Positions 2,470 to 50,342 of a DNA stretch of 64,000 bases are shown piece by piece. Every line of letters starts with the position of its first letter. Within the stretch, counting starts at the first letter, position 1. The DNA comes from Nitrospirota bacterium. GTDB taxonomy: Bacteria > Nitrospirota > JACRHJ01. The DNA lies in assembly GCA_016212105.1 (NCBI GenBank), contig JACRHJ010000028.1:11689-75688 (forward strand), written 5' to 3'. The notes under the pieces were generated by a model, which was not told the DNA's origin, ran no database searches, and saw nothing but the letters and a program-made list of their open reading frames with translations. The position numbers were made by a program, and so were the translations under genes.

Positions 2470-2830
2470 TACACATGGTGTCATTGCGAGGAGTCCCGCG
2501 CTTTGCGGGACGACGCGGCAATCCCAGCCTTTAAGAACTGAGATTGCCACGCTTCGCTCGCAATGACAGGCAAAACAAGGGCCGACACACTGAACGGCCC
2601 CAAGTTCCGTCATTCCCGCGAAGGCGGGAATCCAGGAAGTTCGCAATCTGACGTCAAATTCCTGGACCCCCGCCTTCGCGGGGGTGACGTCAAAAGATAA
2701 AGGCAGGGCCGACACACGGGTCGGCCCCTACATAAAAGCAGGTCACTCCACGGAGCCTGCCCTGAGCCCCGGCTTTATGCATGCCGTGGTGAAATCCGCT
2801 GAAGGGGACGGGATGACGACCTGCCTTTAA
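2470..2830. repeat. intergenic palindromic-module cluster R1 (G+M composite, D', A, Q, D, E containing L)
   Basis: Modules: 2478-2524 gtcattgcgagg..gcggcaatc; 2538-2568 its inverted short partner; 2609-2640 gtcattcccgcgaaggcgggaatccagg; 2659-2689 ttcctggacccccgccttcgcgggggtgac; 2701-2740 aggcagggccgacacacgggtcggcccctacataaaagc. Confidence 0.9.
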
Positions 2831-4265: not shown

Positions 4266-4400
4266 TAAGTTGTAGCTGCCCGATTCATCGGGCTGTTTTG
4301 TAGGGCGCGACGCCCTCGGCGCGCCGTATAAGGCAGGGCCGACACGCGGATCGGCCCCTACATAAAAGCAGGTCCCTCCACTTCGGTCGGGACGACAAGG
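4266..4400. repeat. cluster R2 (H, K, D, E)
   Basis: Modules: 4272-4293 gtagctgcccgattcatcgggc; 4300-4325 gtagggcgcgacgccctcggcgcgcc; 4331-4369 D; 4368-4397 gcaggtccctccacttcggtcgggacgaca. Confidence 0.9.
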
Positions 4401-4408
4401 TGCATACA

Positions 4409-4453
4409 CCTCACAAAAGTTTTTGGGCCGCCTTTTTACCAAAAAGGCGGGAC
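4409..4453 (+). repeat. T element copy 2
   Basis: cctcacaaaagtttttgggccgcctttttaccaaaaaggcgggac. Confidence 0.8.
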
Positions 4454-4482
4454 GTTGCAGTTGTCCTCAGCGGGGCGTCCAG

Positions 4483-4967: not shown

Positions 4968-5222
4968 CTGTCATTCCGAGGCGCAGCCGAAGAATCCGCC
5001 TGTATCCGGTAAGATGTAGGGGCGCAATTCATTGCGCCCGTCAGAATTATATACAGGCAGATTCTTCGCGTTGCTCAGAATGACACCGTTATAAAAACGG
5101 CAATGACAAGAAGGGCCGACACGCAGGTCGGCCCCTGCAACAGGTAGCAGGGCAATAATATAGATAATCCGGCTTCCACAATCTGTAGGGGCCGTACCAA
5201 GCGAAGCGCGTGTCGGCCCTTT
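4968..5222. repeat. cluster R3 (F, C, inverted F, D, R)
   Basis: 4970-5005 and 5051-5084 are an inverted pair of F modules. They flank 5016-5039 gtaggggcgcaattcattgcgccc. Also present are 5113-5138 (D) and 5185-5219 gtaggggccgtaccaagcgaagcgcgtgtcggccc. Confidence 0.9.
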
Positions 5223-9384: not shown

Positions 9385-9695
9385 CCCCCGGCCCCCGGAT
9401 ATCTTAAGAGGGGGAGTTAGAGGTGGGGGCCAGATTTCAACCTCCCCCTTTGGAAAAGGGGGATTGAGGGGGATTTGGGTTTAATGTGGGGGCAGGTCCC
9501 CGTGCCTGCCCTCTTGCTTTTATGTAGGGGCGGGCCTCTGCGCCCGCCCGCATCTCGGGAGCGCGCTGAAGCGCTCCCCTACAAAAGCGCCCGATGAATC
9601 GGGCAGCTACAAATTCCTGGACCCCGTGTCAAAGCCTGCCCTGAGCCCCGGCCTTAAGCATACCGGGGTAAACTCCGCCGAAGGGGTCGTGACGG
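9385..9695. repeat. cluster R5 (N poly-G/C hairpins, I-like x2, H inverted, B containing L)
   Basis: Modules: 9436-9480 cctccccctttggaaaagggggattgagggggatttgg; 9524-9550 gtaggggcgggcctctgcgcccgccc; 9588-9610 gcccgatgaatcgggcagctac; 9614-9692 B split by an L insert. Confidence 0.85.
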
Positions 9696-13544: not shown

Positions 13545-13895
13545 AGTGTGTCATTCTGAGCCCCGGCTTTGAGCATGCCGGGGCAGGCTCCCCGAAGAAT
13601 CCGCCTGTATCTATAATTGTTGTAGGGGCGCAATTCATTGCGCCCGCACCTTATTGCTTGTCGCCCCGTGCTCGACACGTGGTCCAGGAAGTTGTAGTTG
13701 CCCGATTCATCGGGCAGTTTTAAATCAGGGCGGGCACGGGGACCCGCCCCTACAGCAAAGAAGGGCCGACACACGGGTCGGCCCCTGCATAAAATCAAAG
13801 TCGCTGGATTCCCGCCTTCGCGGGAATGACAACCATTCGTCCCCCTCTCCCGGCCCTTCGGGCCACCCTCTCCCGCAAGGGGAGAGGGGGTTATT
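13545..13895. repeat. cluster R6 (F containing L, C, B, H, I, D, A, P)
   Basis: Eight or more modules lie back to back. Examples: 13623-13646 gtaggggcgcaattcattgcgccc; 13729-13753 gggcgggcacggggacccgcccctac; 13801-13829 A (inverted). Confidence 0.9.
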
Positions 13896-16597: not shown

Positions 16598-16789
16598 ATG
16601 CCGATAAAAGAGATAGTAAAAGACAGCCGGAAATACGCGGGGCAGTACGTCGCCACGAAGTCCTTCAGGAGCAGGACCGTCGTGAGCCACGGAAAGGACC
16701 CGCTCGCCGTCTGGGACGACGCGGAGAAGAAGGGCGTCAAGGACCCGGTCGTGTTTTTCATACCGCGTTCTGATATGAAATTGCATTAG
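16598..16789 (+). CDS. small DUF5678-like protein
   Basis: 63 aa. The pattern YAGQYVA....VVSHGKDPLAVWDDAEKKGVKDPVVFFIP matches my recollection of DUF5678. A promoter-like element lies at 16531-16560. Confidence 0.6.
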   Translation: MPIKEIVKDSRKYAGQYVATKSFRSRTVVSHGKDPLAVWDDAEKKGVKDPVVFFIPRSDMKLH

Positions 16790-16929
16790 ACCCACCGAAT
16801 CTTAATAAGTCCGACAATAAGACAATTTGGCGAGATAGAACCAACGGTAGCTCGTAATCGGGATGCAATATTGACGCGCTGTCGGCTATAATGTATTCTT
16901 GTAGTTAACTTACTGGTAAATCTCCTACT

Positions 16930-17379
16930 ATGAGCGCAGAGTATAATCCGCTACTTACACCTGGCTTTCACGATATTCCAACCGATGATCTGGAGCAAGT
17001 TTTCGTCGCGCCTTTTCCCGACCCGACTCATAGGAGCTATTTGGTAGAACGATTGAAAGTTCTTTTATCAATAGTGAACGATGTTGGCATTGCTTTTGAA
17101 ATATGGATAGACGGATCATTTACAACCGAAAAACCCCAACCATCTGACATAGACATAGCTTTCTTTTTCGACCCACAAGAAGTTAACGATTTGCCAAAGG
17201 ACAAATTGGACATTTTAATGGACGTGTTTTCAAATCCCACGCAGACAAAGTATAGGTATAAATGCGATGTTTATTTTGTACCCAACAACGCAATAAATGA
17301 TCGTAGTTATTGGCGTGGTTGGTTTGGCTTTTCAAGAAATGAGCAGCCAAAGGGAATCGCTAGAATCATACTGAATTAA
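16930..17379 (+). CDS. minimal Pol-beta-fold nucleotidyltransferase (DUF6932-like)
   Basis: 149 aa in the AT-rich island. The NTase signature hG[GS]-x9-DxD is present as WIDGSFTTEKPQPSDIDIAFF. A third acidic residue is in YKCDVYFV. The N-terminal TPGFHDIPTDDLEQVF and C-terminal KGIARI resemble small stand-alone NTases. The DUF6932 label is from memory. Confidence 0.75.
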   Translation: MSAEYNPLLTPGFHDIPTDDLEQVFVAPFPDPTHRSYLVERLKVLLSIVNDVGIAFEIWIDGSFTTEKPQPSDIDIAFFFDPQEVNDLPKDKLDILMDVFSNPTQTKYRYKCDVYFVPNNAINDRSYWRGWFGFSRNEQPKGIARIILN

Positions 17380-17394
17380 GGCACCGGTAATAAC

Positions 17395-18327
17395 ATGAAT
17401 ATAATAGAAAAACTTAATAACCAAATCGTAGCCGCTAATGATATGTTAGCTCGTTACGAAACCGTTCTTGATAAAGAGCCCAAGAATATTGCGTATCAAC
17501 TAAGCGCTATTAGTGTCAAAAGTCACATTTCGGAACTACAGCATCAGTTGCAGCGCGAAAAGATTCTTCGAGAAAAAGAAGTATTGGAGATACGCTTAAA
17601 AGGAGTAACTGCTAACGGAAGCATACCCCTGTCCGTGTTATCCGAATTGTCACTTTACCTATCCGATGCATTACAGGCAACTTCTCAGAAAGTGAAAACT
17701 GGGTTAGATGCAAAGAGACGAATATTGAAAGATATTGTTAATACCCTTGACCTAAGACTTGCTGGTTTAGCTACAGGTTCGACTCGTTTAATAATTACGG
17801 GTAACTCCTCACCAGATCTATTCGGACAAAGTCTTTTAGAAAGCAGTCTAGAGAATACCTTTGCATTATTAGAATCTCGTTCTGCTGAAGAATTAACAGA
17901 AGGTGTTTCTAAAGTTGGTATACGTAGCGCGAATAAGTTTAACAAATTCCTAAAAACAATTTCCGATTCTGGTTATGAAGTTGACATTTCATGGGTATCG
18001 CCTACGAAACATGAATATGATTGGAAAGCCAGCATGGATGATATACGTAGTCTATCTAATTCTCTGGACAGTATAACAATGTCTCAGAACGAAATTTTCG
18101 AATTTAAAGGTAAATTAGTTATGGCTAGCTTAAAAGGCGCCTTTGAGATAGAGACCGACGCCGAAGAAACAATAAAGGGGAAATTCCCAACACAATTAAC
18201 AGAGTATGTCAAAAAGCTTCATATCGGAGATAAGTGCAACGGTATGATAGAAAAGGAAACGATTACTAATCGAACCACGGGACTTGAAAAAGTATACTAT
18301 ACATTGCTTGAAATAGAAGCCATCTAA
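17395..18327 (+). CDS. hypothetical protein, partner of the NTase (no recognisable domain)
   Basis: 310 aa, starting 15 nt after the NTase stop, with the same AT-rich composition. The N-terminal 65 aa or so are heptad-like and Q/E/L-rich. No TM helices, no P-loop and no Rx4-6H motif were found. Confidence 0.75.
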   Translation: MNIIEKLNNQIVAANDMLARYETVLDKEPKNIAYQLSAISVKSHISELQHQLQREKILREKEVLEIRLKGVTANGSIPLSVLSELSLYLSDALQATSQKVKTGLDAKRRILKDIVNTLDLRLAGLATGSTRLIITGNSSPDLFGQSLLESSLENTFALLESRSAEELTEGVSKVGIRSANKFNKFLKTISDSGYEVDISWVSPTKHEYDWKASMDDIRSLSNSLDSITMSQNEIFEFKGKLVMASLKGAFEIETDAEETIKGKFPTQLTEYVKKLHIGDKCNGMIEKETITNRTTGLEKVYYTLLEIEAI

Positions 18328-18372
18328 TTCCTGGCCTGTTTTAACATTCCGGGAATCAAAACCACGCAGACC

Positions 18373-18398
18373 AAAATGGCCGCCCTCCCGGGCGGCCA
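18373..18398. repeat. 26-nt hairpin AAAATGGCCGCCCTCCCGGGCGGCCA, copy 1 (terminator-like, downstream of hicA and of the island operon)
   Basis: Identical to 18982..19007. The stem is ATGGCCGCCC/GGGCGGCCAT with loop TCCC. A T-run follows on the minus strand. Confidence 0.85.
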
Positions 18399-18452
18399 GT
18401 CGCATTTTATAATTCACTCTTTTCTGAAGATACACACGTGAGGCATGCCTTC

Positions 18453-18683
18453 TTAAACCATCTCCTCAAACTCCTCCACCGTCATCCCCGCATCCTTCAA
18501 AATCGCCTTCAACGTCTTTGGCGGGATAACCTGCCCTGCGTGCATCGCAACCACCACGCGCCGCTTGCCGTCTTCGCTCTTGAATACCGCATGGCTACCA
18601 GTCTGGTGGTGCAGGGCGAAGCCCTTCCTGTTCAGGACGCGCACGAGGTCCTTGTCGGTGACGCGCGGCAGGCGCGGGGTCAT
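18453..18683 (-). CDS. hicA: type II toxin HicA (mRNA interferase)
   Basis: 76 aa. LVRVLNRKGFALHHQTGSHAVF is the HicA signature. It overlaps hicB by 4 nt. Confidence 0.9.
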   Translation of the reverse strand: MTPRLPRVTDKDLVRVLNRKGFALHHQTGSHAVFKSEDGKRRVVVAMHAGQVIPPKTLKAILKDAGMTVEEFEEMV

Positions 18684-18895
18684 GCCGCCACTTCCACCTT
18701 CTCGGCGGAGTCCTCAGGGAACGGCAGCCCGTCCTTCTTGAGGCTTTCGAGATAAGCCTCTATCGCCTCGCGTATGTTCGCAAGCGCCTCGTCCTTCGTG
18801 CCGCCGTAGGAATGACAGCCGGGAAGCGCGGGACAGTAAACATGGAACCCGCCCCCTTCCTCGTCCTCGAAGATAACCGTATATCTTACAGACAT
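18680..18895 (-). CDS. hicB: type II antitoxin HicB-like (UPF0150 fold)
   Basis: 71 aa. YTVIFEDEEGGGFHVYCPALPGCHSYGGTKDEALANIREAIEAYLE is typical of the HicB N-terminal domain. Confidence 0.88.
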   Translation of the reverse strand: MSVRYTVIFEDEEGGGFHVYCPALPGCHSYGGTKDEALANIREAIEAYLESLKKDGLPFPEDSAEKVEVAA

Positions 18896-18981
18896 TACAA
18901 CCTCCAGAATTAAAGCCTGCCTGTATGTTAAGCCATACCGGAAACTTTTTCAACCAAAATGTAGTTGATAGCCAGCGCACA

Positions 18982-20231: not shown

Positions 20232-20442
20232 CTCTTATGTAGGGGCGGGTCCCCGTGCCCGCCCTGCCTTGTATTTGATTTTGTAGGGGCCGACCCGTGT
20301 GTCGGCCCTGCCTTTGGTTTATGGTTGTCATTGCGAGGAGCCGAAGGCGACGCGGCAATCTCGGCCTTTAAGTACTGAGATTGCCACGCTTCACTCGCAA
20401 TGACATAATAAAGGTCCTACACCCGCTTCGCTTGGTACGGTT
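20232..20442. repeat. cluster R8 (I, D, G+M composite, R)
   Basis: Modules: 20239-20264 gtaggggcgggtccccgtgcccgccc; 20283-20308 gtaggggccgacccgtgtgtcggccc; 20327-20404 G+M composite; 20416-20440 R (inverted). Confidence 0.9.
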
Positions 20443-25369: not shown

Positions 25370-25605
25370 AAACCAAATCCCCCTCATTCCCCCTTTTTCA
25401 AAGGGGGAGGTGAAGTCTTGTCCCCACTTTGTAAAAGGGGGGACTACAGGGGGGATTTGCCTTTATCCGTCATTCCCGCGAACGCGGGAATCCAGTGACT
25501 TTTTCAATCTTCCCCCTCCCCACCTGCGGGGAAGGGGGGCAGGGGGGCTGGGGGTGTCTCTTCCAGTCTTCATCCCCTTTATGGGAGAGGGGTCAGGGGT
25601 GAGAA
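25370..25605. repeat. cluster R10 inside the MFP-RND intercistronic gap (N, A, P)
   Basis: 25375-25420 ccaaatccccctcattccccctttttcaaagggggagg is the inverse of the copy at 9436. 25469-25495 is an A module. 25511-25600 is G-tract hairpins. Confidence 0.85.
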
Positions 25606-32966: not shown

Positions 32967-33197
32967 GCGTCACCCTGACAGCGACGAGTTCCGTCGCGGG
33001 AAGTAATAACGTGCCGGTTGAGCGTATCCATGGAGGAGAGACATTTGGTGCGTAAAACTCGGTCGAGCTTTCCTGATAATATTATAGCACAATTATATTT
33101 ATGCGCATCCCGGTCTGTAAAACATGTTTAGTTCGGGGCGCGCCCCCCGCCGCCCCGGACGAATCTCGCCGCATCCTTATAAAAAACATCAATAAAG

Positions 33198-33225
33198 TTG
33201 CCTCTGGCGGACTCTGTGGTATAAT
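33198..33225 (+). promoter_or_regulatory. extended -10 promoter upstream of galT-glgA
   Basis: TTGCCT (33198-33203), a 16-nt spacer ending in TGg, then TATAAT (33220-33225). Confidence 0.55.
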
Positions 33226-33280
33226 CAATAAATGCGGCGGACCAAAAAAACAACATGGCCATCCACCCGGAGGTAAGTTT

Positions 33281-34282
33281 ATGCCCGAGCTGAGGAAAGA
33301 CCCCATCATAGGCAGGTGGGTAATCATATCGTCCGAGAGGGGGAAGCGGCCCTCGGACTTCACGGACGGCGGCGAGCGCAAGCGGAAGGGCGGCTTCTGC
33401 CCGTTCGACATAGGCAACGAGCACACGACCCCGCCTGAGATACTGTCGTACCGCGAGGACGGAACCGCGCCGAATACGCCGGGCTGGAACCTCCGCGTCG
33501 TGGCGAACAAGTTCCCAGCGCTCCAGATAGAGGGCGACCTCAACAAGCAGGGCGAGGGCGTCTTCGACAAGATGAACGGCGTCGGGGCGCACGAGGTCAT
33601 AATCGAGACCCCGCTCCACGACGCGACGCTCTCGACCATGGCCCTGAAGGACGTGGAGAACGTCCTGTGGGCCTACCGGGACCGCATAGTGGACCTCAAG
33701 AAGGACAAGCGCTTCCAGTACGTCCTGATATTCAAGAACGAGGGCGAGGCGGCCGGGGCGTCGCTTGAGCACTCGCACTCCCAGCTCATAGCGCTGCCCA
33801 TCGTCCCCAAACGCGTCCGCGAGGAGATAGACGGCGCGAAGCAGTACTACGACTACAAGGAACGCTGCGTATTCTGCGACATTATAAGGCAGGAGCTTAA
33901 CGCGGGCATACGGGTCGTGAGCGAGAACAAGGACTTCGTCGCGCTTGAGCCGTTCACGCCGCGCTTCCCGTTCGAGACCTGGATACTGCCCAAGAAGCAC
34001 GACTCCTGCTTCGAGGACGCGAGGACGCACGAGTTCCCGTCGCTCGCGGAGATACTCCAGACGACGCTCAGGCGCATAGACAAGGTGCTGAACGTCCCGC
34101 CTTACAACTACATACTGCACAGCTCGCCGTTCCGCGAGCCGGACAACGACTACTACCACTGGCACATGGAGATAATGCCCAAGCTGACCAAGGTCGCGGG
34201 ATTTGAGTGGGGCTCGGGATTTTACATAAACCCGACCGCTCCGGAGGAGGCCGCGAAGTTCCTCAGGGAGGCGAAGATATAG
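33281..34282 (+). CDS. galT: galactose-1-phosphate uridylyltransferase family (GalT/HIT superfamily) enzyme
   Basis: The ATG at 33281 lies 6 nt after GGAGGT. The N-terminus MPELRKDPIIGRWVIIS is typical. The active-site HxHxQ is present as HSHSQL. The upstream part of ORF 33101.. is non-homologous. Confidence 0.9.
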   Translation: MPELRKDPIIGRWVIISSERGKRPSDFTDGGERKRKGGFCPFDIGNEHTTPPEILSYREDGTAPNTPGWNLRVVANKFPALQIEGDLNKQGEGVFDKMNGVGAHEVIIETPLHDATLSTMALKDVENVLWAYRDRIVDLKKDKRFQYVLIFKNEGEAAGASLEHSHSQLIALPIVPKRVREEIDGAKQYYDYKERCVFCDIIRQELNAGIRVVSENKDFVALEPFTPRFPFETWILPKKHDSCFEDARTHEFPSLAEILQTTLRRIDKVLNVPPYNYILHSSPFREPDNDYYHWHMEIMPKLTKVAGFEWGSGFYINPTAPEEAAKFLREAKI

Positions 34283-34284
34283 GG

Positions 34285-34512
34285 GCGCATGCCATGGTGT
34301 CGCCCCGTGCTTGACACGGGGGCCAGGAAGTTGCCTTGTCCGTCATTCCCGCCCCGGCTTTAGGCATACCGGGGTAAACTCCAGCGGGAATCCAGGAAGT
34401 AGATTTAATGTAGGGGCGGGTCCCCGTGCCCGCCCAGGTGTTAAAGGCAGGGCCGACACACGGGTCGGCCCCTGCATAAAAGCAGGTCCCTCCGATTCGG
34501 TCGGGACGACGG
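34285..34512. repeat. cluster R12 in the galT-glgA gap (B, A containing L, I, D, E)
   Basis: Modules: 34298-34331 B (inverted); 34342-34400 A interrupted by L; 34410-34435 I; 34446-34482 D; 34482-34510 E. Confidence 0.9.
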
Positions 34513-34526
34513 ACTTGCATGTATTA

Positions 34527-34571
34527 CCTCTGAATAGTTTTTGGGCCGCCTTTTTTCCAAAAAGGCGGGAC
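34527..34571 (+). repeat. T element copy 3
   Basis: cctctgaatagtttttgggccgccttttttccaaaaaggcgggac, followed by tttgcgtttgttg. Confidence 0.8.
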
Positions 34572-34622
34572 TTTGCGTTTGTTGCGTTCCCCCCCAATGT
34601 TCTTGAATTAAAGGAGGCAAAA

Positions 34623-36101
34623 ATGAAGGTAGCCCTAATTTCCCCGGAGGTCGTGCCGTTCGCCAAGACAGGCGGTCTCGCGGACGTCTCCGGCGCGCTG
34701 CCCAAGGCGCTCGCCAGGATCGGCGTCGAGGTCGCGGTCGTCATGCCCCGCTACCGGGCGGTGGACGAGAAGAAGTTCGGCCTGGTGCGGCACGCGCGGA
34801 AGGTCACGGCGAAGGTGGACGGCAGGGAGGTCGAGTCCGGCATCTTCGAGGGGAGCCTGCCCGGCGGGGTGAAGGTCTACTTCCTGGACAACCCGGCATA
34901 CTACGGCCGCGACCAGCTATACGGCACGCCGCAGGGCGACTACCCGGACAACGCCGAGCGGTTCACGTACTTCTGCAAGGCGGTCCCGGAGGTCCTGAAG
35001 GCGGTCGGCTTCAAGCCGGACGTCATGCACGTCAACGACTGGCAGTCCGGGCTGGTGCCGCTGTACCTCAAGGAGTTCTACGGCGCGGACCCTGACTTTA
35101 CGGGCACCGGCACGGTAATCACGGTGCACAACCTCGGCTACCAGGGCGTCTTCTGGGCGGAGGACATGCACCTGACGGGGCTCGGCTGGGAGCACTTCAC
35201 CCCGGACGGCATAGAGTTCTACGGCAAGATAAACTGCCTGAAGGCGGGCCTTGTCCACTCGGACATAATAAACACGGTGTCGAAGACGTACGGCAAGGAG
35301 ATCCAGACCCCGGAGTACGGATGCGGCCTGGAAGGTGTATTGACGGCGCGGGACGCCGACCTCTACGGCATAGTCAACGGCATAGACTACGACGAGTGGG
35401 ACCCGGAGAAGGACAAGAACCTCGCGCAGAACTTCGGCGCGGGCGACGTGAAGGGCAAGCTCGCCAACAAGAAGGCGCTCCTGAAAGAGCTTGGCCTGCC
35501 CGCGACGGGCAACAGGCCGCTGTTCGGGATAATCTCCCGGCTCGCCGACCAGAAAGGCCTCGACATCCTGTCCGAGTCCATGGACGAGATGCTCGGGCTG
35601 GGCGTCCAGTTCGTCATGCTCGGGACGGGAGAGGAGAAGTACCACAAGCTCTTCACCGAGCTTGCGAAAACGAACCCCAGGCAGGTCTCGGTCAACATCG
35701 GGTTCGACGCGAAGCTCGCGACGAGGATATACGCGGGCACGGACGTATTCCTCATGCCGTCCCGGTACGAACCGTGCGGGCTGGGCCAGCTCATAAGCCT
35801 CAGGTACGGCACCGTGCCGCTCGTCAGAAAGACCGGCGGCCTCGCGGACACGGTCAAGAACTACAGCGTCAGGACTGGCAAGGGCAACGGGTTCGTCTTC
35901 ACGGACTACTCGTCCAGGGCGCTGATGAAGGCGGTAAAGGCCGCGGTCGCCGCGTATGAGGACAAGGCGGCCTGGAAGGGGCTTGTCGAGCGCGGCATGA
36001 ACGAGGACAACTCCTGGGAGCGCTCGGCCAGGGAGTATGTCAAGCTATACAGGAAGGCGATGGACAAGGCGGCGGCCAAGGAGGAGGACGCGGCGGCGTA
36101 G
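34623..36101 (+). CDS. glgA: glycogen (starch) synthase GlgA
   Basis: The start MKVALISPEVVPFAKTGGLADV carries the KTGGL motif and has GGAGG upstream. The gene encodes 492 aa. The 104 upstream codons of ORF 34311.. are repeat modules. Confidence 0.95.
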   Translation: MKVALISPEVVPFAKTGGLADVSGALPKALARIGVEVAVVMPRYRAVDEKKFGLVRHARKVTAKVDGREVESGIFEGSLPGGVKVYFLDNPAYYGRDQLYGTPQGDYPDNAERFTYFCKAVPEVLKAVGFKPDVMHVNDWQSGLVPLYLKEFYGADPDFTGTGTVITVHNLGYQGVFWAEDMHLTGLGWEHFTPDGIEFYGKINCLKAGLVHSDIINTVSKTYGKEIQTPEYGCGLEGVLTARDADLYGIVNGIDYDEWDPEKDKNLAQNFGAGDVKGKLANKKALLKELGLPATGNRPLFGIISRLADQKGLDILSESMDEMLGLGVQFVMLGTGEEKYHKLFTELAKTNPRQVSVNIGFDAKLATRIYAGTDVFLMPSRYEPCGLGQLISLRYGTVPLVRKTGGLADTVKNYSVRTGKGNGFVFTDYSSRALMKAVKAAVAAYEDKAAWKGLVERGMNEDNSWERSAREYVKLYRKAMDKAAAKEEDAAA

Positions 36102-36630
36102 GGGCGTCCCTCACTCGGCGCGGGACGCCCGCACCTGATGCTGTCATTCCCGCGAAAGCGGGAATCCATTGTTTCCGTAGGGGCCGCACCAAGCGAAGCG
36201 CGTGTCGGCCCTTTCATAGAATTCCTGGACCCCCGTCTTCACGGGGGTGACGGTCAGGGCCGACCCGTGTGCCGGCCCCATAAACTTCCTGGACCCCGTG
36301 TCAGGCACGGGGCGACATGGATATTTCGGTTGTCATTCCCGCATCGCGGGAACAGATGTATTTGTAGGGCGCGACGCCCCCGGCGCGCCGGGTTTTTACT
36401 CGGTTGTAGCTGCCCCATTTATGGGGCGAATTTAAAACGCCCGATGAACCGGGCAGCTACATTGCAGTTGTAGGGGCGCAATTATTGCGCCCGCACCGAT
36501 TTGTACAAAAGCAGATTCTTCGCTGCGCTCAGAATGACACCGTTTAATACAAAAGCAGGGCCGGCACACGGGTCGGCCCCTGCATAAAGGCAACTTCCTG
36601 GACCCCGTGTCAGGCACGGGGCGACATGTA
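36098..36630. repeat. cluster R13, the densest array (about 13 modules: K', A, R, Q, D, B, A, K, H', H, C, F, D, B)
   Basis: Modules are contiguous from the glgA stop to the kinase start. Examples: 36143-36167 A; 36178-36212 R; 36364-36389 K; 36470-36493 C; 36594-36625 B. Confidence 0.9.
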
Positions 36631-47724: not shown

Positions 47725-47982
47725 GTTTAAGTGCAGGGCCGAGCAGAGCCCGTCCTGATCGTAGCTGAAGGATGTCGGCCCTTTTTATATCCCGGCGCGC
47801 CGGGGGCACAGCTTGCCCCGGTATGCCTGAAGCAGGGGCGGGAATGACAGGCAAGGGCGGATATTGCCTCGTCGCCCCGTGACTCGGGGCGACTTGCAAC
47901 GAATGACATGGCGGGCACGGGGACCCGCCCCTACATTTTATTCGTATACAGGCGGATTCTTCGCTCCGCTCAGAATGACACC
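47725..47982. repeat. cluster R17 (D with insert, K fragment, L+A half, perfect GC palindrome, I, F)
   Basis: Modules: 47870-47892 gtcgccccgtgactcggggcgac; 47911-47934 I (inverted); 47946-47979 F (inverted). Confidence 0.85.
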
Positions 47983-49828: not shown

Positions 49829-50342
49829 TTGTCATTGCGAGGAGTCCCGCGTCTCGCGGGACGACGCGGCAATCTCCTCCATTGTCTGTCATTCCGAGCG
49901 AAGCCGAGGATTCCGCTGTTGCCTTATTAATAATTCGGCAATTATACAGGTCAATCAGGCAATACAATATAAGTCCCTGGATTCCCGCTGGAGTTTACCC
50001 CGGTATGCCTAAAGCCGGGGCGGGAATGACGGTCCCATTTTGTCGCCCCGTGCCCGTTCGGCTTCGATCAGGGCAGGCTTTGACACGGGGTCCAGGAAGT
50101 TGCCCTACTTGGTTGCCGGATTAATAATTCAACAGCAGGTCCCTCCACTACGGTCGGGACGACATGATATAAGAAGGAGCGGGCGCAATGAATTGCGCCC
50201 CTACAATTGATCGTATACAGGCGGATTCTTCGCGGAGTATACCCTGAGCGAAGTCGAAGGGCACAGAATGACAACGAAGAGGGCGGGCACAGGGACCCGC
50301 CCCTACATGAAAACAAGAGGGCCGACACGCTGACCGGCCCTT
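49829..50342. repeat. cluster R19 downstream of smpB (G, J, A containing L, B containing L fragment, E, C, F with insert, I, D)
   Basis: Modules: 49831-49875 G; 49888-49913 J; 49977-50030; 50041-50100; 50135-50164 E; 50181-50204 C; 50215-50272; 50281-50306 I; 50319-50340 D. Confidence 0.9.

Follow-up and report, generated by a model that had tools for sequence, protein, structure and literature searches.

A discrete unit with constant ends, here termed L, has come many times to occupy the tips of other hairpins, as its junctions, hosts and sequence variants establish, and the pattern supports targeting of such tips; a single-strand substrate, an enzyme, and gain rather than loss of the unit are what we infer. 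The window (the whole 64-kb stretch of DNA analysed) is ordinary bacterial chromosome with a G+C content of 62%, assigned to Nitrospirota by its GalT homologues, in which short G+C-rich hairpins of a few families pack nearly every spacer, forming REP/BIME-like mosaics whose palindromic elements carry a CGTC/TGTC tag (modules A, B, F, G and H) or a GTAG tag (modules C, D and E). The site at which L first drew attention lies within the 301-bp spacer separating galT (33101-34282) from glgA (34584-36101).

Host hairpins and filled tips in the window

The host at that site is module A, (C/T)GTC-ATTCCCGC-GAAA-GCGGGAAT-CCAG, whose 5' half GTCATTCCCGC occurs 15 times in the window at up to one mismatch (14 exact) against 1.8 occurrences expected. 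The GTC head is present in 14/14 exact copies, preceded by C in eight and by T in six, and all 12 A loci in the 64 kb fall in spacers between called genes, with a CCAG tail and a loop that reads GAAA, GAAG or GAAC at nine of the 12 and ATC at one. Judged by its sequence (the tag, an 8-bp stem with A + T first, a 4-nt loop, the CCA tail and a multicopy extragenic distribution), A is a textbook CGTC-1 REP as defined by Di Nocera, De Gregorio and Rocco in 2013, in a family that includes Neisseria dRS3 (PMC3733652), and the 23-mer GTCATTCCCGCGAAAGCGGGAAT of A appears letter for letter in a paper on Neisseria gonorrhoeae. The GTC head recurs in the related modules B, F, F2, G and H; C, D and E have the GTAG head followed by a G+C-rich hairpin (GTAGGGGCGGG..CCCGCCC, GTAGGGGCCGAC..GTCGGCCC and GTAGGGGCGCAAT..ATTGCGCCC) of GTAG REPs, the class associated with RAYT genes, CGTC REPs being without a known transposase (PMC3733652). 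Filled loops are regarded as derived, because the form of CGTC REP that is found widely is a simple one with a 4-5-nt loop (PMC3733652).

L itself comprises a 23-nt hairpin, CCCCGGC-TTTAAGCAT-GCCGGGG, and a following tail, CAGGCTYY, for a whole unit of 29-31 nt. Its core occurs six times in the window against 0.01 expected, and a covariance-model search finds exactly six L there, none free-standing, four on the forward and two on the reverse strand, with no strand bias visible at n=6. The ends of the unit were drawn from an alignment of 39 distinct junctions (window and species genomes), in which position -1 is C in 39/39 contexts, giving L the extent stated above, with 7 bp in the stem of copies that have the closing pair; the first six tail positions read C32 A38 G30 G34 C37 T36 of 39, followed by two pyrimidine-rich bases, and position -2 and positions from +9 onwards track the host. 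Target-site duplication is absent from all 39 L junctions, as is a conserved target tetranucleotide 5' of L, and the 5' complement of the tail (AGCCTG) is nearly always missing from L contexts, the exceptions being loci L048 and L025, where the tail is mirrored to give a perfect 22-bp palindrome. Three stem pairs are altered on both sides, with a score that 0/500 shuffles matched (model alignment), and the loop TTYARGCNT and tail CAGGCT are conserved across phyla; the hairpin is maintained, since its stem pairs change in compensation while loop and tail stay constant.

A second cassette, M (CCCTTCGRC-TTCG-MTCAGGG), corresponds to the ~20-nt core of the F-type REP hairpin and also bears an L-type tail of 6-8 nt (CAGGCT, CAGGCTCC, CAGGCTTT, TATACTCC or CGGGCTCT). 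B, D, F and G all have copies that carry it at the loop, in inverted orientation; none of the five M units in the window stands alone, and cassettes nest within cassettes to a depth of up to three levels (Table 1).

Table 1. Filled, truncated and reference hairpins in the window (slashes separate host arms from cassettes; nt, nucleotides)
Feature	Position	Strand	Composition
A-L composite	34342-34396	+	GTCATTCCCG / CCCCGGCTTTAGGCATACCGGGG TAAACTCC / A GCGGGAATCCAGG; arms 34345-34352 and 34384-34391; 31-nt L (34352-34382) replaces GAAA loop
Second A-L composite	49976-50030	-	Copy of the first composite (100% identity across 55-57 nt); flanks unrelated
F-L composite	13550-13608	+	GTCATTCTGAGC / L (13561-13591, tail CAGGCTCC) / CCGAAGAATCCGCCTGT
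Three-level nest in B	9614-9693	-	Degenerate B holds M with tail CAGGCT; M holds L (9646-9676, +)
Three-level nest in G	2738-2820	-	G holds M with tail CAGGCTCC; M holds L (2767-2797, +)
Truncated A-L	47808-47848	-	A 5' arm and diverged L (tail CAAGCTGT); A 3' arm missing, fused to right part of another GTAG-type module
B-M composite	50042-50098	+	GTCGCCCCGTG / CCCGTTCGGCTTCGATCAGGG CAGGCT / TTGACACGGGG
F-M composite	50217-50272	-	GTCATTCTGTGC / CCTTCGACTTCGCTCAGGG TATACTCC / GCGAAGAATCC
D-M composite	47736-47781	-	GGGCCGAC...CTCGGCCC; 30-nt M-like insert with tail CGGGCTCT
H with inner hairpin	2480-2523	+	A-like central hairpin TCCCGCG-CTTT-GCGGGA
H with inner hairpin, second	49831-49874	+	Inner A-like hairpin
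H with short centre	20327-20360		Centre CCGAAGGC
GTAG-type D with 17-nt centre	5185-5219	+	TACCAAGCGAAGCGCGT replaces usual 6-nt loop
GTAG-type D with 17-nt centre, second	36177-36211		
Empty A (reference)	36143-36168	+	GTCATTCCCGC-GAAA-GCGGGAATCCA; DNA fold -9.0 kcal/mol, z = -4.8

At the site between galT and glgA, the earlier note had an A module split exactly at its loop by L (34342-34400); L does sit at the tip, but it takes the place of the loop, of which no more than the final base survives. Both A arms are intact around a loop of 31 nt in place of the usual 4, and ten other A copies have the same arms closed by a 3-4-nt loop (GAAA, GAAG, GAAC or ATC). Folded as single-stranded DNA, the composite is predicted to have its 8-bp outer stem stacked on a 5-bp inner one, the tail bulging out on the 3' side (-12.2 kcal/mol, z = -2.2). 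An arm-to-arm search of the window gave, for host A, 10 empty copies and two with L; for F, four empty (paralogues with a 3-nt loop), one with L and one with M; for B, about nine empty (5-nt loop), one with M and one with M containing L; for D, about 12 empty (6-nt loop), one with an M-like insert and two with a 17-nt centre; for G, five empty and one with M containing L; and for H, one empty and two with the inner A-like hairpin.

Nesting was confirmed at all seven places where it had been proposed, with several changes of content. The L within F (13550-13610) is a 31-nt unit between F arms, as described, and the insert in a D-like module at ~47735-47790 is present (47736-47781), being M-like with tail CGGGCTCT. 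The L reported inside B at 9614-9692 exists, but within an M that is itself in B, making three levels. What had been read as an L fragment in B (50041-50100) is M with the L-type 8-nt tail CAGGCTTT, and the insert in F called unrelated (50215-50272) is M with tail TATACTCC. The three-level nest in G (2738-2820) and the truncated A-L (47808-47848) are additions to that list. L lies in the unlike hosts A, F and M, but the A-L at 49976-50030 is not an independent event and duplicates the first composite; as the two copies are identical, they are counted as one event, subsequently amplified. Placement at hairpin tips, for L in 6/6 and for M in 5/5 window cases, together with flank complementarity above controls elsewhere, shows that the position of the units is far from random. 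Of the two outcomes named in the earlier note as contrary to it, mostly free-standing copies and duplication of a single composite, the former describes 0/6 window L; the latter holds for the two identical A-L copies but not for the other hosts, or for the mixing of arms and L variants.

Comparisons within the window and with a close strain place the changes at hairpin centres. An array of D, G and a T-rich terminator-like hairpin occurs three times, one of the three being filled: the copy at 2690 carries M containing L in its G loop, which is empty in the paralogous arrays at 4320 and 34434. A dimer of GTAG-REP, spacer and F occurs six times, with four empty (3-nt loop), one M-filled and one L-filled copy. 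In these paralogous arrays the flanks are conserved on both sides and the difference is confined to the loop, which makes them the nearest thing to occupied/empty pairs obtained. An orthologous pair was not found in a 99%-identical strain or in relatives at 86-89% GalT identity: in the strain (contig JACRQC010000004.1 of GCA_016222885.1, locus L067) 21 kb are colinear and bear the same inserts, and in the relatives the whole REP array is absent between galT and glgA. The sole REP-array difference between the 99% strains over these 21 kb is a patch (window 34493-34535 versus L067 11140-11185) in which a G hairpin centre (GACCGAATCGGAG versus GAGCGAAATCGAG) and the adjoining spacer are replaced, which fits conversion or turnover at hairpin centres. 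The galT gene of GCA_016222885.1 has a 69-nt in-frame deletion (window 33437-33505), with a called product of 310 aa versus 332 in relatives. An assembly artefact was dropped as an explanation, A-L being present also in this independent assembly and the structure in more than 100 contigs.

Other features of the spacers were recorded alongside. The T-rich hairpin of the arrays (~55 nt, GTTTTTGGGCCGCCTTTTTTCCAAAAAGGCGGGAC; 2830-2886, 4408-4464 and 34526-34582) lies just upstream of three genes and comes after the D and G REP pair every time; it may be a terminator or leader element travelling with the REP block. A separate palindrome family of C-runs and G-runs (CCCCCTC...GGGGGAG, for example CCCTCTCCCGCAAGGGGAGAGGGGG), at 9400-9470, 13840-13890 and 25380-25600, differs from the CGTC and GTAG modules. 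An island of low G+C content (16600-18900; 0.47 against ~0.62) has open reading frames with DUF6932 (16930-17379) and, as a weak match, SUKH_5 (17395-18327), together with a toxin-antitoxin pair of the HicA/HicB type (18453-18895), and was probably acquired horizontally. An Rfam covariance-model scan of the window at gathering score gave 0 matches and a tRNA/tmRNA scan none, and with both RNA scans empty the reading of the repeats as tRNA or other RNA genes was dropped; a CRISPR reading was dropped for the irregular spacing of the repeats, and an integron attC reading because attC recombines at the base of its hairpin, not the tip.

L in other genomes and metagenomes

A pattern scan of species genomes (one genome per species), with the L stem held fixed, returned at least 66 loci. 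About 20 of the 66 listed loci are chance matches inside genes, and the remainder place L in metagenome-assembled genomes (MAGs) of Burkholderiales, Nitrospirota, Coxiellaceae, Casimicrobiaceae, Usitatibacteraceae, Acidiferrobacterales and others. Among the listed loci, nearly all L lie between complementary arms of CGTC-, F-, H- or GTAG-type hairpins, and identical arms with ordinary GAAG, GCAG or GTAG loops are found in those same genomes. The host arms differ from one another (ATTCCCGC, ATTCCGGC, ATCCCGGC, GCCCCGGC, GTCCCGGC and GTCCCCGC, besides F-, H- and GTAG-type arms), and 13 copies of L sit directly against a host stem of 8 bp or longer, compared with 6 of 2000 control positions. A second scan, of metagenome contigs with three stem pairs left free, gave 115 loci, in which the free pairs were CGA/TCG (48), GGC/GCC (31), GGC/ACC (12), AGC/GCT (5), GGA/TCC (2) and a few others, all three pairs forming in 90/116 units. 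Runs of perfect flank complementarity of at least 8 bp accompany 26% of 121 unique L contexts, drawn from genomes and metagenomes, versus 0.7% of controls, and runs of at least 6 bp accompany 52% versus 9%. These abutting-stem and flank-complementarity tests replaced a minimum-free-energy enclosure test, which was set aside (67% of real L enclosed, 55% by chance and 56% of mismatched-flank controls); it did not discriminate because G+C-rich flanks fold anyway.

L variants and host arms are shuffled with respect to each other, one L variant occurring in at least six kinds of arm and the same arms occurring with different variants, and both orientations of L relative to the GTC head are common and occur within a single variant too. 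One Burkholderiales MAG has L in A-type, GTCGTCCCCGC-type and other hosts. The composites of each genome make up multicopy families that share junctions; dozens of A-L unitigs are present in the metagenome, and A-L copies from distant samples combine one and the same ...CTCC-A-GCGGGAAT junction with unlike L variants, a pattern that descent of the composite from a shared ancestor, with L diverging later, fits equally well. Some L hosts are not obvious hairpins (CCGAGGACGCAGAGA-type repeats), and a CCGTTCGC...CGAAGGG hairpin host has kept its loop, which is complementary to the L tail. In metagenome contigs L070, L100, L102, L110, L154 and L169 this last host reads CCGTTCGC, then L with CAGGCT, then CTGAGCCTGTCGAAGGG, and the GAGCCTG of the kept loop is complementary to the L tail at every base; the tail may have originated in this host. 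A plasmid collection gave no significant match to L, viral contigs none to the L pattern, and a literature search no paper with the L sequence or a description of the conserved cassette.

The groundwater metagenomes examined are public runs containing the window sequence. In Logan unitigs of four such runs, REP words reach depths 100-1000x that of unique DNA, an excess that maps at window positions 34305-34405 and 36123-36223 in comparison with flanking unique genes (runs X1-X4). The unitigs end inside REP modules and yield information on depth, not on excision or polymorphism; REP modules are common to many genomes of the community and fragment their assemblies.

The search for a cognate enzyme was negative in the 64-kb window, which holds no transposase, Y1/HUH types included, and no RAYT (Y1_Tnp) gene flanked by cognate REPs. 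Comparison of E. coli RayT with all open reading frames of the collected loci gave one match, a Y1_Tnp protein adjoining the L copy in locus L028, where an L hairpin without the CAGGCT tail lies directly beside the 3' end, an arrangement seen only in that locus. The protein belongs to a 240-aa RAYT-like Y1_Tnp family of betaproteobacterial contigs (L028 1230-2140; L187, L189 and L191 1400-2300). It was rejected as the L enzyme because the family is flanked by conserved inverted ends of its own (TAATAGGGGACAGACCACG) and six homologues are without L.

Routes to the hairpin tip

The favoured reading, held tentatively, is that the unit is transferred as single-stranded DNA by a hairpin-recognising nuclease. 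During replication or repair, REP hairpins would fold out of the single-stranded DNA, and a trans-acting nuclease/strand-transferase of HUH/Y1-like geometry would bind the cassette hairpin, cut at its 5' foot and at a fixed distance of ~8 nt 3' of the hairpin, and join the excised unit to a second folded hairpin at its tip, with most of the host loop lost; as the host is a near-palindrome, either strand could serve as target, hence both orientations. Composites such as A-L then multiply as repeat families in their own right. Binding of a hairpin combined with a cut at a fixed short distance is the geometry of Y1 transposases and relaxases. Simple insertion is opposed by the replacement of the loop, the lack of duplication and junctions that vary by 0-2 nt, the known integration of IS200/IS605 elements being precise and leaving the target in place. 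These same features are among the strengths of the main rival, considered possible though on the unlikely side, in which no dedicated element takes part and broken tips are repaired by template switching: at stalled or SbcCD-type-cut tips, the nascent strand or repair synthesis would copy another REP centre, or the complementary strand, and return within the stem, swapping the loop contents, with L and M as the centres most often copied. Such repair would replace the host loop without duplicating a target and vary the junction by 0-2 nt, C or GC runs being shared between junction and host arms; it would accommodate M as an F-type REP core, inverted inside F, B, D and G, and the mirrored tails of L048 and L025 (the 22-bp palindrome), which are as in quasi-palindrome correction. 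The only REP difference between the strains, a replaced hairpin centre and spacer (34493-34535), also agrees with it, as do CGTC REPs without a known transposase (PMC3733652). Ragged ends would be expected from this process, however, and L both starts and ends at the same bases in more than 10 unrelated host arms from several phyla; only the 3' tail accompanies it, the 5' half (AGCCTG) being nearly always absent, and transfer between unlike arms would have to rest on 1-2 nt of homology. Template switching explains loop loss, junction variation, mirrored tails and the strain difference better, and the invariant ends less well.

Two further explanations dispense with repeated insertion or with mobility, and each is thought improbable. 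One ancient L-tipped composite could have spread vertically and horizontally, L being selected and the outer arms drifting by compensation to each genome's REP type, with empty hairpins either unrelated or made by deletion of the centre. The identity of the two window A-L copies, the multicopy families with shared junctions inside each genome, the common 3' A-L junction bearing different L stem variants in distant samples and a stem covariation that suggests long-term selection would all be at home in that history. The paralogous arrays nonetheless contradict it, and so does the mixing seen between variants and arms: host arms occur with L variants in many combinations, hosts that differ by more than a few substitutions coexist in one genome (A, F and M in the window, and likewise in the Burkholderiales MAG), one L variant takes both orientations to the GTC head, and the arrays differ only in an empty, L- or M-filled loop. 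CGTC REPs with 4-5-nt loops are, moreover, widespread in taxa in which L was not found (PMC3733652). Alternatively, L could be a structured motif under functional selection, whether a site bound by a conserved host protein or a 3' UTR RNA terminator or stabiliser, and its place inside other hairpins would then mirror function and not origin. The cross-phylum conservation of loop TTYARGCNT and tail CAGGCT over a covarying stem would speak for this, as would the 6/6 window L whose strand allows a sense reading with respect to an upstream or convergent gene. REPs in E. coli act on mRNA decay and bind IHF or gyrase. The sense orientation is uninformative, since only 2/6 window L lie between co-directional genes, and L has neither an Rfam match nor a particular gene link, is seen on both strands and in a multitude of unrelated spacers, and reaches hundreds of copies per community; selection of this kind accounts for conservation, not for arrival in many hosts.

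Transfer by a hairpin-recognising nuclease invites a more specific proposal, doubtful as it stands, that L and M are minimal (~30 nt) non-autonomous single-stranded DNA elements, hairpin plus CAGGCTYY, moved in trans to REP tips. If true, they would give a first glimpse of the machinery dispersing the 'orphan' CGTC REPs present from Neisseria to Nitrospirota, repeats that are among the most widespread in bacteria and for which no mobilising enzyme is known (PMC3733652). A tip cassette with constant ends leads to testable predictions: that strands are used unequally, that some gene family accompanies the cassette across genomes, and that cleavage falls ~8 nt 3' of the hairpin. Hairpin tips as the site of REP change bear on the growth of REP arrays, and in practice the units break metagenome assemblies, whose unitigs end there, and seed spurious small open reading frames.

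Relation to known systems

Processing of hairpins as single-stranded DNA by a Y1 HUH enzyme, without target duplication, is characteristic of the REPIN-RAYT and IS200/IS605 (IS608) systems. By analogy, the L hairpin and its conserved ~8-nt 3' tail resemble the ends of such elements; L differs in being a single hairpin, in having no tetranucleotide target, in the loss of the target loop and in the lack of a cognate RAYT among the genes searched. In place of the different left and right subterminal hairpins of IS200/IS605 elements it has one hairpin and a 3' tail, and in place of a fixed tetra- or pentanucleotide target that is kept intact, position -2 and the bases upstream vary and the loop is lost. 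Nor does the unit resemble miniature inverted-repeat elements (MITEs), with IS-derived terminal inverted repeats and a duplication, as it is asymmetric, has its tail only at the 3' end and shows 39 junctions without duplication; a known RNA family finds no counterpart in the 0 Rfam matches of the window.

IS1397 inserts in the loop of a palindromic unit. Like IS1397 and ISKpn1 (IS3 family), elements of the IS110/IS1111 family have a REP palindrome as target, IS1111 being inserted in the GTAG REP of Coxiella QMITE2 (PMC5896051). These REP-targeting elements are of kilobase size, encode a transposase and have defined ends, and IS1397 duplicates 3-4 bp of its target, whereas L and M are non-coding inserts of 27-31 nt that leave the host arms 30 nt apart, with the loop removed and no duplication.

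The closest likeness is to the REP arrays themselves. The hosts share with CGTC and GTAG REPs an extragenic, clustered occurrence in head-to-head dimers, with C, D and E headed by GTAG, and REPs inside small palindromes have been noted in passing in T. roseum, H. neapolitanus and A. variabilis (PMC3733652). What distinguishes the present case is a 29-31-nt hairpin-plus-tail, headed by neither CGTC nor GTAG, that replaces the REP loop, a unit found across phyla, nested to three levels and joined by a second cassette type with a common tail. The BIMEs of E. coli and NIMEs of Neisseria are likewise intergenic palindrome arrays interleaved with short motifs and repeated as whole blocks, but their extra motifs stand between the palindromic units and not, as here, inside the hairpin at its tip. 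The arrangement is best filed as new: conserved loop cassettes nested in REP hairpins, a variant of the REP/BIME mosaics.
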